Made by a program: the position numbers and the translations under genes
In this document: piece after piece, positions 4,352-23,662 of the stretch
How the letters are laid out: every line of letters starts with the position of its first letter
Position numbering within the stretch: position 1 is the stretch's first letter
Notes under the pieces: generated by a model
Databases searched by the model: none
Told to the model about the DNA's origin: nothing
What the model saw: only the letters and a program-made list of their open reading frames with translations
Source of the DNA: a virus
Taxonomy: Duplodnaviria > Caudoviricetes
DNA length: 64,000 nt
Virus record (IMG/VR): IMGVR_UViG_3300032321_002024
Span: 198,604-262,603 of that record
Strand: one strand, 5' to 3'

Positions 4352-6592
4352 TTATTCAAATAGAGGGAATCTTGGTAGATATAATCTAGTTGTTGCGTTA
4401 TCAGCAAAGATTAGATATTTCGAATCATCTCTAATGATGTATTGATTACACATCTTATTGTGTTCTGTTTCAGGTATTATTTCTGTAAATAATCTTATAT
4501 TAGTGATCTTCATATCTGATGCTAAAATCTCTGGATTGAAACCTTCAGCTTCAAATTCAAACTGTTCTATATCAAATGACTGTTTGTATAACTGTCTTAA
4601 CATAGTATATGATAAATTAGCAGCCTCATCTTCTTCATCAACATTTCTCTTATAGATAAACTGTTCAGCTTTTTTGTTTCTCTGATCTACATTTAATACA
4701 TAACAATACCAAGTATCTTCTGTAAGAGCAATCGCATTGTTATTAGGTTGTCCCATTAAAGATTGACTATATGTCACTCCATTAAGAGTGAATTTTAACT
4801 CATCACTTTCAAGTTCAAACTTATATCCTATATTCGAATTATAATTATAGTAACTCATAAAGTTATACGTTTCACCTGGTATATAATTATTCAAATTAAA
4901 CCAACACATAAATCCTATATTATTAGTAGTTCCTAAAATAGGATTAAAGTTTACATATCTAACTGCTAAATTTCTATAAGCTAGTGATGATAAATCATAA
5001 TGAGCTTTTGAAATAATCGTAGTTGAGTTTTCAATTAATTCTTTATTTATACTTGCATTATATTCTAACCTTATAACTTCAGTAGTAAGTGGTTTAAATT
5101 GATCTTTGTTTGCAATTGCTTCTTTTTCTTGGTTATTTTCAAATCCAAATAACTCATCAATTGTTGTGTTTTTAGTAAGTCTATCAACAGATTGTTTGAT
5201 GTTTTCATCTGCGTAGGTGATGTTTGCGGTTTTGTTGTATTTTTTCAGAACCAGTTTGTAGTAAACTGCCGCATTGTTAAAATTTCTAAACTGTTGAGCA
5301 TGATCAACAGAATACATCCTATTTAAATCACAGAAATATAAAAAGTCTTCTTTTGCTGGTCTTCTTTGAGCTCCAAAAATCTCTTTGAATTGTTGTTTAG
5401 TTATATGAACTTGAAATGATTCAAATAAATTCAAATCAAATTGATTCATTATAATCTGTGAATCGGGAAAATTGTTTCCTTCTACTGAGACTTTTAATTC
5501 TCCTTCACAAACTACATTATATAATTGATACTCGTGAAGTATTGTATCTTGTCCTTTTTTATCTGGATCAGTTGCGTAGTAAATTACTCTATGTCCAAAA
5601 ATCATCTGAGCATCATTACTCAATTTTTGTAATAAATTCATAGCCTGACTTTGTTGATAAGGATTGAAAAGATTTGCCTTCTCATCTGTAGTCATTTGTG
5701 GTAGTGAGCTTGTTTCTGGATCACATCCAGGCCCACCTGAACTTCCATTAGCATTTAAATTACTATTAGGAACAAATACTCCATTCTCATCATAAGCACC
5801 CATTAAATTAGACTGACAACATTGTCTAATACCAAACAAGTTAGTTTTCTTAGAATCTTCCGAGACATTTTGAAAACTTCCTAATAGATTTATATCTTGT
5901 ATAGTCACACTTTGATTTGAATTATTTTCTATTAAATATTCAATTTGAAAAAATCTAATTGGATTTATTCTTCTCGTTGTTATATTTTCTTTAGTGAATA
6001 ATTCATAATCAGACCAACTTCTACTACTATCTTGTGAAAATCTATAAGATATTTTACAACCTGATGGAATTCCAGTTGATGATATAATTTCAATATCTGT
6101 AATTCTAAATACTTTAAAAATAAAAGGTGGCTTAATAATAAGAGTTTTACCAGCTGGAATTGTAGATACACCCTCTTCATTTTGCATTGGTCTTTCTAAT
6201 TCACCTTGAATATTATATTCTAAAATTCTAATTACACCAATAGTAGATGTTCCTTTTCTTACCCATTTAACTTCTAAATAAAAAGGATCTAATGGATCGA
6301 TAATTGGAAAGTTCATAACTTTTAAAGTTAGGTCTAACCAATCTGTCCAATTTTGACCATCTCTTGAAACTCTATAATAGTTTAGTAAATATCTTGCGTC
6401 GGTTAATCCAATAGTGTCATAGTAAAATCTTGTTAACGTTTTAACATTTTGAATTTCAGGAAACGACAAAATATATTCATCTCCAATATTTGAAAATGAA
6501 GGACAAGCGTTAGCCGCTTGAACTCCTACAGTTGGATCGAATTTGTCTGAAATAACAAGTTTACCTAGAATTATATCTGAAGAGATGTTCAT
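4352..6592 (-). CDS. Virion neck protein, T4 gp14-like core with extra N-terminal domains and a C-terminal LamG-like domain
   Basis: FGHRVIYY...ILHEY...HITKQQF...RPAKEDFLYF resembles gp14-type head-completion proteins; late-promoter motif upstream. Confidence 0.6.
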   Translation of the reverse strand: MNISSDIILGKLVISDKFDPTVGVQAANACPSFSNIGDEYILSFPEIQNVKTLTRFYYDTIGLTDARYLLNYYRVSRDGQNWTDWLDLTLKVMNFPIIDPLDPFYLEVKWVRKGTSTIGVIRILEYNIQGELERPMQNEEGVSTIPAGKTLIIKPPFIFKVFRITDIEIISSTGIPSGCKISYRFSQDSSRSWSDYELFTKENITTRRINPIRFFQIEYLIENNSNQSVTIQDINLLGSFQNVSEDSKKTNLFGIRQCCQSNLMGAYDENGVFVPNSNLNANGSSGGPGCDPETSSLPQMTTDEKANLFNPYQQSQAMNLLQKLSNDAQMIFGHRVIYYATDPDKKGQDTILHEYQLYNVVCEGELKVSVEGNNFPDSQIIMNQFDLNLFESFQVHITKQQFKEIFGAQRRPAKEDFLYFCDLNRMYSVDHAQQFRNFNNAAVYYKLVLKKYNKTANITYADENIKQSVDRLTKNTTIDELFGFENNQEKEAIANKDQFKPLTTEVIRLEYNASINKELIENSTTIISKAHYDLSSLAYRNLAVRYVNFNPILGTTNNIGFMCWFNLNNYIPGETYNFMSYYNYNSNIGYKFELESDELKFTLNGVTYSQSLMGQPNNNAIALTEDTWYCYVLNVDQRNKKAEQFIYKRNVDEEDEAANLSYTMLRQLYKQSFDIEQFEFEAEGFNPEILASDMKITNIRLFTEIIPETEHNKMCNQYIIRDDSKYLIFADNATTRLYLPRFPLFE

Positions 6593-9326: not shown

Positions 9327-10751
9327 ATGAAGTTTCTACAAACATACGAAGGATTGAATAAGGCTTATAGAAATAAGTCACTACCACATGCTGGTGAACC
9401 AATTCACTCAGGTGATAAGATATCTATTTTACAACAAGACTGGTTCGAGAAACTTTTACCTGAAACTTTTACTATACACTCTAATCCAAATATTAAAAAA
9501 TTAAATAAAGACTTGACCATCACTGATATTGATGGAAATAAAGAATATGTTTTTGATAAAAATGAATGCACAATTGATAATGGATTAGTTCAGTTTAGTT
9601 ATTACTACAATAGTGCTGATCAACAAGATGAAAAAAACAAACATAAAAGACCAATACCATTAGATCCTAATTATGTTTTAGAAAATGGTGAGCCATCTAT
9701 GCTTGAATTTGACATACACTTTTCAAAAATAGGACAAGGTGATATTTTTGCAGAAGATGATGAAATAAAAATGCTTGTTGATATTACTTATGGTAATAAT
9801 ATGGCAGTTGAGTTTTCATTGGAAGCTCCTAATAAAATTAATATTGTTCATTATACATCAGTTGGGTCTAAATATGATTCAGAAACACACTGGGGTTTCA
9901 CTCATGAGTCAATCGATGACTTAGTAAAGTTTTTTAATGCGTTTAATCACGGTATAGAACTTACCTCTGATGATTTAAATTTTTTAGATGAAAACTATGA
10001 TAGTTATAAACATCAAGATGAAAATCCGAAACACCTTTATAATGATGATTCAGATTTAATTAAATTTGGAAATTCCTATGAAGAATCCTTCACTGAAAAA
10101 GAAGATATCTTTTTGATTATTAATAATGCTAAATCACCTTTATTTAAATATTTTCCAAAAGTTGCTAGATACTTAAGAGTAAAAGATATTCCTTATAAAG
10201 CAGCTTGTTCACCTGAAGAAGTTCAAAGATATAATCAAGAATATAATATTATTGGATGTTTTTCTACAGGTTCTGACTATAGTATGAAATCACCGGACTC
10301 AAAAGCAGAATTTGCGGCATCTGAGGAAGCACTAAGAATTTTAAAATGTCCTATACTAGCAATGTGTTATGGATTTCAATCAATGGTTAAGTTCTATGGA
10401 CAGAACGTTGATGGTGGTGAATTAAATTGTGGTTTATTTAACCTAACTGATTTTGATTCAGAACATTTTTTATTTAAGAATATTGACCTTACTGAACAAA
10501 AAGTTAATTTCTGTTTCCATGACTATCCGGTTAATGTTCCGGTTGACTTTGAAAATATTGCTATGTTAGGTGAGACAATAGCTGGGATATCTAATAAGAA
10601 TTTAAAAAGGTATGGAATACTTTTTCATCCAGAAGAATTAGAAGAAACTTGCATAATTTTAGATAATTTTGTTAATGAATGTAAAATTTCTACACCTACT
10701 AAATTACTAAAACTTCAAACTTTTGAAAATTTTATTAAAAAATCTTTGTAA
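9327..10751 (+). CDS. Protein with C-terminal class I glutamine amidotransferase domain and packaging-tag-like termini
   Basis: PILAMCYGFQ nucleophile elbow and FHPE motif; N-term MKFLQTYE, C-term LKLQTFENF; late motif at 9313-21. Confidence 0.75.
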   Translation: MKFLQTYEGLNKAYRNKSLPHAGEPIHSGDKISILQQDWFEKLLPETFTIHSNPNIKKLNKDLTITDIDGNKEYVFDKNECTIDNGLVQFSYYYNSADQQDEKNKHKRPIPLDPNYVLENGEPSMLEFDIHFSKIGQGDIFAEDDEIKMLVDITYGNNMAVEFSLEAPNKINIVHYTSVGSKYDSETHWGFTHESIDDLVKFFNAFNHGIELTSDDLNFLDENYDSYKHQDENPKHLYNDDSDLIKFGNSYEESFTEKEDIFLIINNAKSPLFKYFPKVARYLRVKDIPYKAACSPEEVQRYNQEYNIIGCFSTGSDYSMKSPDSKAEFAASEEALRILKCPILAMCYGFQSMVKFYGQNVDGGELNCGLFNLTDFDSEHFLFKNIDLTEQKVNFCFHDYPVNVPVDFENIAMLGETIAGISNKNLKRYGILFHPEELEETCIILDNFVNECKISTPTKLLKLQTFENFIKKSL

Positions 10752-10775
10752 AATAGAAACTTTTTTCTAAATTTG
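10745..10775 (+). promoter_or_regulatory. Bacteroidota sigma70-type promoter of the leader/tRNA operon
   Basis: TTTG (10745-48), 19-nt spacer, TAAATTTG (10768-75). Confidence 0.7.
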
Positions 10776-10823
10776 TATAGAAAATTGATAAACAAACAAA
10801 AATAATTGAATATATACTTAACA

Positions 10824-10916
10824 ATGAAAAACTTAAATGTAAATATCGTAGTAAATCAACAACCGCAGGATCAAGATCGTGTCGGAGTGGCTAACTATGT
10901 CTTTACAATAAGTTAA
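10824..10916 (+). CDS. Putative attenuator leader peptide MKNLNVNIVVNQQPQDQDRVGVANYVFTIS
   Basis: 30-codon ORF; CAA CAA CCG CAG GAT CAA GAT run at 10857-10877 matches the downstream tRNA-Gln/Pro/Asp. Confidence 0.75.
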   Translation: MKNLNVNIVVNQQPQDQDRVGVANYVFTIS

Positions 10917-10951
10917 AAATTTATATAACAAATTTGTAAAACCCGGTTAGT
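10890..10951 (+). promoter_or_regulatory. Putative antiterminator hairpin
   Basis: GCTAACT..GT.TTTACAA (10890-10908) pairs with TTGTAAA-AC..GGTTAGT (10934-10951), sequestering the 5' arm of the terminator. Confidence 0.65.
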
Positions 10952-10976
10952 AATCTAATCGGGTTTTTTTGTTTTT
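10938..10976 (+). terminator. Intrinsic (attenuator) terminator directly before tRNA-Asp
   Basis: ACCCGGTTAG-TAAT-CTAATCGGGT 10-bp stem plus T-tract. Confidence 0.85.
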
Positions 10977-10977
10977 A

Positions 10978-11049
10978 GGTCTATTAGGGTAGTGGTTATC
11001 CTTCCTCACTGTCTATGAGGAGACGCGAGTTCGATTCTCGCATAGACCG
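10978..11049 (+). tRNA. tRNA-Asp(GTC)
   Basis: Acceptor GGTCTAT/ATAGACC; anticodon loop CTGTCTA; T-loop TTCGATT. Confidence 0.9.
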
Positions 11050-22038: not shown

Positions 22039-22070
22039 TTTGGCAGAACCACATTCTTGACTTATCTTTG
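22039..22070 (+). promoter_or_regulatory. Sigma70-type promoter for tRNA-Tyr
   Basis: TTTG, 20-nt spacer, TATCTTTG. Confidence 0.75.
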
Positions 22071-22083
22071 TATTCACAAACAT

Positions 22084-22171
22084 GGGGAAGTTCCAGAGCG
22101 GCAAATGGAGTTACGTTGTAACGTGACTGGTCTCAAATGATCTTCGTAGGTTCGAGTCCTAACCTTTCCCA
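22084..22171 (+). tRNA. tRNA-Tyr(GTA) with atypical anticodon arm
   Basis: GGGGAAG/CTTTCCC acceptor, long variable arm; anticodon arm GTTACG-TTGTAA-CGTGAC. Confidence 0.7.
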
Positions 22172-22188: not shown

Positions 22189-22306
22189 TTTGGTAGATTA
22201 AAATATTCTTCTTATCTTTGTAAAACAAATCAGAAACGTCTGATATAAGTTAAACAAAAAATCTTTACATAAGATTTGGTAGATTGAAAAACTTTACTTA
22301 TCTTTG
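22189..22306 (+). promoter_or_regulatory. Two tandem near-identical sigma70 promoters (rrn-like)
   Basis: TTTG-20-TATCTTTG at 22189-22220 and 22275-22306, each within AAGATTTGGTAGATT...CTTATCTTTGTAAAACAAA. Confidence 0.8.
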
Positions 22307-22342
22307 TAAAACAAAATTGAAATAAAGAGTATAAAAATATAT

Positions 22343-22415
22343 CGCGGGGTAGAGCAGTTGGAAGCTCGCAAGGCTCATAACCTTGAGGTCACTGGTTCGA
22401 GTCCAGTCTCCGCTA
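22343..22415 (+). tRNA. Initiator tRNA-fMet(CAT)
   Basis: CGCGGGG start with C1:U72 mismatch; CAAGG-CTCATAA-CCTTG. Confidence 0.9.
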
Positions 22416-22440
22416 CAAAAGAGTTCTCAACGGAGAACAA

Positions 22441-22452
22441 CGTTCTTTGAAA
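22441..22452 (+). promoter_or_regulatory. boxA-like antitermination element
   Basis: CGTTCTTTGAAA resembles rrn boxA (GTTCTTTGAAAA type). Confidence 0.5.
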
Positions 22453-22459
22453 TATTGTC

Positions 22460-23294
22460 TTTAACAGTCGGTTTCGGCTGACTGTGAAAAGAAGGGCGGC
22501 TTATAGTCCTTAAAATAAACTTCGAAAGGAGGATAAAGTGAATCCAAAGCAAAATGGATTTGCGTCTTGAAAGTTCTTCGGAACAATTGAGGTCGAGTAA
22601 GCAAGTGGGATACCACAAATTCTGAGTAGTCGAGGGTAACACTGTAGACCAAATGAGTTTGTGACCAGGCAATTGTAGATTGTTTGGTTGACCTCGGAAG
22701 AGGAATAGGAATAACCCATAGGTCTGTTGCGAGAAGTGTTGACTCACCGGTCTTCATCATTGCGGAGTCCAACTTAAGAGGTGTCTTAAAGTTGAAAGAC
22801 AATCAAGTGTACGGGTGGTGCTGTTACTTGACACTCTACTCTCTACCAGGAGAGTTGTTGTGAAGATATCTTAAAAAGTTGTGATGGAGGCATCACACGG
22901 AGTTGTCCAGTATTCCTGAGTTCAAAAGATTTGGGAGCTGAAAGGTAACCACAACTTCGACAAAATCTACAAAGCACTACAATTTAAATGTAAAAACTTA
23001 AATCGAAAGTGTTACCTAGTTACTGGTGAAAGGTACCTACTTAGTCGTGAGTGTTCACGGCCACTGAAGCTCGAAAGGCTGATGTGATTTCATCGAAAAG
23101 CTTATAGAGGGTCGAACCTCGAGTCAGCTCGCAAGGTTGAGTAAGTGGATTAAATGGAGAGTAATTAGTAACTTAAGGAGTGGTTAGTCTAACTAACCGG
23201 TATTGGCAGAATACTTCTCAAAAGGGAGTGGATAAGAAGGGAAACCATAATCTAACAAAAGTTCTGTCGTAATAAGGTGTAATCTCAACCTTTT
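22460..23294 (+). ncRNA. Large structured ncRNA (~830 nt), GOLLD-like candidate
   Basis: No + strand ORF; visibly more G/C-rich than flanks; UUCG/GNRA hairpins; long-range helix; flanked by tRNAs. Family assignment is inference. Confidence 0.65.
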
Positions 23295-23435
23295 CTGGTC
23301 GGTTCATTGGAACCATTGAGAGCAAGACTCAAACCGACCACGAAGTTTTCGTAGTGGTTAACTTTTCCCTTTAATTAGGGGGTCTACTGAAATGAGTAAG
23401 TAGGGTGGGTACCAAACCCCATACTAAAAAAACTT

Positions 23436-23555: not shown

Positions 23556-23586
23556 AAAAAACCTATCAAATTTGGTAGGTTTTTTT
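23556..23586 (+). terminator. Intrinsic terminator
   Basis: ACCTATCA-AATT-TGGTAGGT plus T-tract. Confidence 0.7.
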
Positions 23587-23588
23587 AT

Positions 23589-23662
23589 GGTCTTTTAACT
23601 CAGTTGGTTAGAGTATCTCGCTCATAACGAGAGAGTCGTAGGTTCGAGTCCTACAAGGACCA
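23589..23662 (+). tRNA. tRNA-CAT (Ile2 or elongator Met)
   Basis: GGTCTTT/AAGGACC paired acceptor; TCTCG-CTCATAA-CGAGA. Confidence 0.88.

Follow-up and report, generated by a model that had tools for sequence, protein, structure and literature searches.

Our results suggest that a huge phage of Bacteroidota makes its GOLLD RNA in much the same way as its host makes rRNA, an explanation to which we give a probability of about 0.7. The identity of the RNA is virtually certain: positions 22492–23291 of the window (the whole stretch of 64,000 nucleotides that was analysed) hold a complete env-38-type GOLLD RNA of 800 nt. The window comes from a virus record of 262.6 kb with a GC content of 29.8%, about 29 tRNA genes and a match to the Gp23 family. 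Its source is a huge uncultured phage of Bacteroidota. Among 50,697 phage records, LR745206 (634,780 bp) and LR756502 (642,428 bp) match best, sharing 74–75% identity with the window across the RNA and 83% across the adjoining Clp-type ATPase.

The Rfam model of GOLLD (RF02032), which spans only the 3′ half of the RNA, matches at 22898–23291 over its full length (model positions 1–416) with 281.7 bits (E = 2e-79; gathering cut-off 150 bits). The first-pass annotation had left the choice between a GOLLD-type and a new large RNA. The full-model match decides for the former and rules out a new RNA family. In the same comparison, ROOL, OLE, group I and II introns, RNase P RNA and tmRNA went unmatched, at the gathering score as well as at E values up to 10. 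The 5′ half is collinear with env-38, motif by motif, in a comparison made by eye against a supplement sequence that lacks a few letters (PMC12286853). The env-38 RNA starts with the hairpin that corresponds to 22492. Hence, the RNA is 800 nt long and the hairpin at 22464–22485 belongs to a variable leader. The earlier description of an RNA of about 830 nt was right about its being large, but the conserved RNA begins only near 22492.

Simpler parts of that description hold as well. The region is more G/C-rich than its flanks (41% vs. 30% on either side), and the sequence motifs that had been quoted from it all lie where they had been placed, each occurring once. The plus strand had been called free of ORFs, which is largely true, the exception being one trivial frame of 59 codons with a TTG start (22684–22863). 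The RNA lies near tRNA genes, the closest upstream one, a tRNA-Met, ending 76 nt before it. Its linker of 48 nt is among the shortest seen (range 46–69 nt) and contains no tRNA. Hence, a cargo could not be covalently attached here. The linker of another GOLLD (L030) holds a tRNA with a CUA (amber-reading) anticodon at 5866–5937 on the minus strand. The features of the locus are collected in Table 1.

Table 1. Features in and around the GOLLD gene (positions in the window).
Feature	Position	Strand	Basis
Predicted Bacteroidota sigma-A-type promoter (TTTG at −33, TAnnTTTG at −7), before the tRNA-Tyr-like gene	22039–22070	+	pattern match
tRNA-Tyr-like gene, one extra base in the anticodon arm	22084–22170	+	conserved in relatives
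Predicted promoter P1, followed by a boxB-like hairpin (22229–22244) without boxA	22189–22220	+	pattern match
Predicted promoter P2	22275–22306	+	pattern match
Initiator-type tRNA-Met(CAT), 1:72 mismatch	22343–22415	+	tRNA annotation
boxB-like hairpin	22423–22438	+	comparison with relatives
boxA, with the word of the Bacteroidota rRNA leader	22442–22452	+	pattern match, homologues
Variable leader hairpin between boxA and GOLLD	22464–22485	+	comparison with relatives
GOLLD 5′ domain, env-38 type, outside the Rfam model	22492–22896	+	motif comparison, covariation
GOLLD 3′ domain, RF02032	22898–23291	+	Rfam match
A-rich variable linker, 48 nt	22960–23007	+	alignment of homologues
tRNA-derived minihelix of 43 nt with discriminator A, possible RNase P site for the GOLLD 3′ end	23297–23340	+	folding, trailer comparison
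Conserved three-hairpin motif, tRNA-core-like, with little or no acceptor stem	23343–23432	+	homologous copies
tRNA-Glu-like gene, 40-nt D-loop (about 33 extra bases), shifted anticodon loop	23436–23542	+	comparison with relatives
Intrinsic-terminator-like hairpin	23556–23585	+	sequence

The 800-nt body folds more stably than each of 20 shuffled sequences (z = −3.4), which agrees with the hairpin-dense, structured region first described. By their 3′ motif and by their leader we gathered 23 full-length homologues with a median identity to the window of 62–63%; they come from related phages, and counts over them are not independent. Lack of covariation had been named as something that would speak against the RNA. 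Covariation is extensive: RNAalifold places 193 pairs on the whole RNA, 138 of them with compensatory changes. In the 5′ domain alone, 97.7% of the cells are paired over the 23 homologues and 72 of the 104 pairs are altered on both sides, whereas none of 500 shuffles is as high and slid controls pair at about 40%, a large margin even for controls that lean in favour of the structure because it was derived from the same alignment.

The 5′ domain also contains a pseudoknot between 22499–22504 and 22597–22602. A second long-range pairing, of 22588–22596 with 22688–22696, had been proposed from the sequence, and only part of it stands. Its 5-bp core is complementary in 22–23 of the 23 homologues, with a swap from C-G to G-C in the phage clade. 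The two outer pairs are found in only 10–11 of the 23, and we reject the full 9-bp helix. Most of the bases concerned are taken by two local helices, which are paired in all 23. At most, the pairing is a short pseudoknot or an alternative fold.

One could also argue that the region encodes a protein on its antisense strand, where the ORFs at 22427–22747 and 22461–22802 offer open frames of 106 and 113 codons. There is next to no chance of this. Stops interrupt the longer frame in 22 of 22 homologues and the shorter one in 20 of 22, neither has a Pfam match, and a frame as long appears in 35 of 500 shuffles (7%). Moreover, sequence variation follows base pairing. A conserved antisense frame would have counted against the RNA, and with the frames broken in homologues we reject the antisense protein.

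Like env-38, the RNA probably folds and self-assembles into a hollow homo-oligomeric cage, as its homology suggests. By cryo-EM, env-38 GOLLD is a 14-mer cage with ten bridges between its subunits (PMC12286853). The family includes 12- and 14-mers, and the isolated 3′ domain forms 10-mers (PMC12990946). When loop sequences are compared with env-38, those of all inter-subunit bridges (B1–B10) are present in the window. The GAAA loop of B1, the GGAA loop of B3, both loops of B5 and the two CAAAA loops of B6 and B10 are kept, and the B2 loop is identical. The B4 kissing loop keeps four of its five pairs and has one compensatory change. The dinucleotides of B7 are complementary in 22 of the 23 homologues through GG:CC, GC:GC or TC:GA, the third being the form of the phage clade; the one remaining homologue was missed by the search pattern. 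The self-kissing loop of B8 reads CG in the window and GC in most homologues, a swap that is described in the env-38 paper (PMC12286853).

Upstream of GOLLD, the pattern TTTG-N20-TAnnTTTG matches with starts at 22039, 22189 and 22275; the 262-kb contig has 30 such matches on both strands. TAnnTTTG is the −7 consensus of Bacteroidota (PMC9723704). Both of the tandem promoters seen earlier, P1 and P2, match this pattern, and the predicted promoters are of the Bacteroidota sigma-A type, not of the sigma-70 type: a search for the latter gave two sites where 3.9 are expected, nothing above chance. The promoters are presumed to be strong, as had been claimed. P2 alone among the 30 matches is followed by a boxA within 200 nt. 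The tandem arrangement is labile. A small structured element lies between the promoters in two relatives (L015, L040), and a third (L038) has a single promoter, P1 being absent. The interpromoter element is G/C-rich and about 75 nt long and is followed by a T-run (2905–2985 in L015, the same place in L040). It is absent from the window, has no Rfam match and folds no better than shuffles. Other tRNA blocks, at 10745–10978 of the window and at 186256 and 197048 of the record (G000), have the same promoter type as the GOLLD unit, with a short leader ORF and a terminator-like hairpin instead of boxA.

The succession of promoter, hairpin and boxA is the one that heads the 16S leaders of Bacteroidota, which bears out the boxA-like and rRNA-like signals of the first-pass annotation. 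In the fuller count, 22 of 24 distinct homologues have an exact boxA upstream, and all 24 have one if a single mismatch is allowed. Within 200 nt upstream it is found in all 16 dereplicated homologues that were selected by their 3′ motif, compared with 26 of 1522 background windows. All 20 close relatives have it, including seven that lack the boxB-like hairpin; in LR745206 this hairpin has an extra paired base pair. However, boxA is not a universal feature of GOLLD: it is absent upstream of GOLLD in LR756502 and in phiCbK, where a lax pattern was used to scan the roughly 850 nt that precede the 3′ domain. The slot of the variable leader hairpin holds unrelated hairpins or nothing in other lineages. 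The tRNA-Met(CAT) in front of boxA lacks one of the three G-C pairs in its anticodon stem. The GOLLD whose linker holds an amber-reading tRNA (L030) also has a boxA upstream. In another contig (L028), a small SRP RNA gene (5261–5348, minus strand) immediately precedes a divergent GOLLD, and each of the two has a boxA-like word in front of it.

In bacterial genomes the promoter-hairpin-boxA pattern is found mostly in Bacteroidota. Of the 80 bacterial loci, 26 reach a 16S start and 29 more hit a contig edge within 450 nt. rRNA operons often end at contig edges in assemblies. In viral contigs the pattern heads GOLLD in 28 of 111 cases, with four further, divergent GOLLDs that Rfam confirms, and a tRNA or tmRNA in 25 of the 111. 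As a possible counterpart of the order tRNA, hairpin, boxA, two Bacteroidota 16S–23S spacers were examined (n = 2 only), and neither has a boxA. In eight phage contigs (L173, L257, L264, L214, L270, L174, L180, L239), promoter-boxA leaders are followed by stretches that are free of long ORFs and do not match GOLLD; these may be further non-coding RNAs. No link between GOLLD and boxA was found in the literature searched, which did not extend to the discovery paper of 2009 and the paper of 2020 on GOLLD in Mycobacterium.

For the rRNA antitermination complex of E. coli, boxA is both required and sufficient, boxB is dispensable, and the loss of boxA has only a 2–3-fold cost (PMC10250234). We found no NusB or NusG gene in the record, which is about 84% complete, so that a phage Nus gene may lie outside it. 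Hence, host factors are the likely readers of boxA. Probably, the sigma-A polymerase of the host starts at P1 and P2 and copies tRNA-fMet, whereupon boxA brings in NusB-S10 of the host together with the other components of the rRNA antitermination complex. This complex would get the long untranslated transcript past Rho and may aid its folding. Host Nus antitermination on the GOLLD transcript is likely, and from the leader we infer, like the first-pass annotation, high-level transcription with Nus recruitment. In Mycobacterium aubagnense, the expression of GOLLD is weak (PMC6582537). None of 21 metagenome matches is a transcript-sized contig; all extend past the ends of the RNA.

Alternatively, boxA could mainly be a sink. 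Abundant phage transcripts would titrate NusB-S10 and lower rRNA synthesis in the host, and GOLLD would need no antitermination at all. Some GOLLD genes do lack boxA and, because GOLLD is heavily structured, sites for Rho loading may be few. It is nevertheless quite improbable that this is the main role of boxA, since the contig has one promoter-linked boxA only, and this boxA stands at the 5′ edge of a stable RNA, its place in rRNA operons. We therefore keep to antitermination by host factors as the preferred reading.

New here is the presence of a tRNA-shaped element just 3′ of GOLLD in the phage clade, which in the window is shrunk to 43 nt. This minihelix begins five bases after the last hairpin of GOLLD. 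It consists of a 7-bp acceptor stem and an adjoining 5-bp T-arm-like hairpin, with all 12 pairs Watson-Crick and a single-stranded 5′ leader, and none of 300 shuffles of the window trailer reaches 12 pairs. A tRNA-shaped element starts 5–13 nt after GOLLD in 18 of the 19 distinct trailers of the clade (17 by scan, plus L283 by eye, which the scan missed through a one-base irregularity). In relatives, the slot is occupied by a full tRNA-Glu-like gene (72–94 nt), a 66-nt tRNA-like RNA, or 43-nt variants with compensatory changes. Of 18 GOLLDs outside the clade, two have trailers with at least 10 pairs, both A/T-run artefacts, in a scan that misses real initiator tRNAs after some other GOLLDs. 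At most other GOLLD loci, the end is a U-run without a tRNA.

What survives the reduction of the trailer element is the acceptor-plus-T-arm stack. Minihelices made of this stack are RNase P substrates and represent the part that RNase P recognises (PMC11221534), which suggests that RNase P makes the 3′ end of GOLLD at the minihelix. The loop of the minihelix is AGCAAGA and its tail ACGA, so that a canonical T-loop and a 3′ RCCA are absent and there is no CCA. For such punctuation of the GOLLD 3′ end by a tRNA-like element the odds are about even. The same holds for the corresponding step of the mechanism: tRNA-processing nucleases would cut the precursor, and RNase P, acting on the minihelix 5 nt further downstream, would free the GOLLD 3′ end. 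This cut would back up or replace a weak termination at the last hairpin and its four U.

It is also conceivable, with chances somewhat below even, that intrinsic termination at the last hairpin and U-run forms the 3′ end and that the tRNA-like elements downstream are independent decoys or decaying tRNA genes, co-transcribed by chance. In many homologues outside the clade, 6–9 of the 10 nt behind the hairpin are T and no tRNA follows, one clade member (L307) has a U-run alone, and the three-hairpin motif and the Glu-like genes occur away from GOLLD too. Two observations are difficult to explain in this way. First, only four U follow the last hairpin in the window. Second, three different elements (43, 66 and 72–94 nt) fill the slot, and all of them lose the D and anticodon arms but retain the acceptor and T stems, in which changes are compensatory. 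Processing at the minihelix is the reading with which we continue.

Further tRNA-like RNAs surround the gene. In the tRNA-Tyr-like gene upstream, the anticodon arm forms an 8-bp hairpin whose loop is UGUA. The three-hairpin motif, which in large phages mostly follows tRNA 3′ ends directly, covaries at 11 of 20 pairs in 14 copies, its 5′ part being the search pattern. It is also seen in tandem and after ordinary tRNA-Met genes away from GOLLD (L288, L290, L293, L296, L297, L313). For the tRNA-Glu-like gene, ARAGORN proposes a 40-nt “intron”, a parse that we reject because relatives show a D-loop expansion of variable length; they have an 18-nt anticodon arm. Genes of this kind, with D-loops of 7–50 nt, lie on either side of GOLLD in L283 (LR745206; at 2163 and 3358), L284 and L294, and the pair in LR745206 is an identical duplicate. 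Another contig (L277) has three in tandem with no GOLLD nearby. Normal tRNA-Tyr and tRNA-Glu genes are present elsewhere in the record. Hence, the Tyr- and Glu-like copies are spare. The terminator-like hairpin that follows is likely the end of the read-through transcript. After it comes a second tRNA with a CAT anticodon (23589–23662 of the window), either an elongator Met or an Ile2 tRNA, which is absent or interrupted in close relatives. tRNA genes with inserts of 30–50 nt in the anticodon region are found in the record before the window (G000, 186902–187031) and in a relative (L015, 4384–4487).

What benefit the cage could provide to the phage is a more tentative matter. One hypothesis, which we hold with less than even confidence, is that it serves as an abundant, stable part of a translation kit during infection: it might shield or hold tRNAs or ribosomes, or draw off RNA-cutting defences of the host. 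We favour a role on the translation side because of the place of GOLLD among tRNA and tmRNA genes, the linker tRNAs of some members (as in L030) and the reported ribosome binding (a pull-down; PMC12286853). tmRNA genes are frequent neighbours of GOLLD, a few kb away at most and in some cases on the opposite strand (L002, L007, L013, L025, L037, L191); ARAGORN finds none in the 262.6-kb record. Equally tentative is the idea that the phage clade imitates the stable-RNA production of its host fully, with antitermination of the rRNA type for the 5′ end and punctuation by a tRNA for the 3′ end, where a former tRNA gene has shrunk to a 43-nt processing signal, and that the tRNA-like RNAs with distorted anticodon arms may be decoys or cargo of the cage.

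The cage could instead be a scaffold for virion assembly, DNA packaging or lysis, like the pRNA of phi29, and have nothing to do with translation. Its symmetric, oligomeric form and the rise of GOLLD expression during lysis (PMC12286853) would fit. We think this unlikely, given that GOLLD sits among tRNA and tmRNA genes with the expression signals of a stable RNA, and that ribosome binding and tRNAs within the linker have been reported (PMC12286853), a linker tRNA being present in L030 too. A part in translation is what we prefer.

By itself, one further member of the GOLLD family changes little. Its context, however, will allow the model to be tested. Mutation of boxA or depletion of Nus factors should lower GOLLD in a Bacteroidota host. 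The 43-nt helix predicts the exact 3′ end of GOLLD, for which a simple RNase P assay would suffice. The swapped bridges B4, B7 and B8 permit comparisons with env-38 in which cage specificity and subunit number can be tested.

Among known RNAs, ROOL and OLE resemble the RNA of the window in being large, ornate and oligomer-forming, and ROOL too is found near tRNAs in phages. Their sequence and fold are unrelated to it, and neither has an Rfam match here. The closest likeness is to env-38 GOLLD itself (Rfam RF02032; PDB 9MEE; PMC12286853). Both are about 800–830 nt long and lie downstream of a Met tRNA, and they share the order of 5′- and 3′-domain motifs, the bridge loops and an A-rich linker separating the two domains. 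The window differs in the clade-specific swaps of bridges B4, B7 and B8 and in its short linker with no tRNA inside; the cage, solved by cryo-EM for env-38, is a predicted one for the window.

tRNAs punctuate other long RNAs, namely mitochondrial transcripts and MALAT1, with mascRNA at its 3′ end. There too, a tRNA-shaped acceptor-plus-T-arm element lies directly 3′ of a long RNA. Unlike these cases, ours is from a bacterial virus, has no CCA and a non-canonical T-loop, and its cleavage site is a candidate.

The 5′ side is best compared with the bacterial rRNA antitermination signal (boxB-boxA-boxC; rrnTAC; PMC10250234). Unlike in an rRNA leader, the cargo is a phage RNA, and boxA comes after a tRNA and not directly after the promoter. 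A conserved leader-trailer helix was not identified in the window; a 7-bp complement exists between 22467–22473 and 23333–23339, and the leader hairpin involved is replaced in relatives such as LR745206. What the two systems share are tandem host-type promoters, a small hairpin and the boxA of Bacteroidota 16S leaders, and the hairpin is as dispensable among the phage relatives as boxB is in E. coli.
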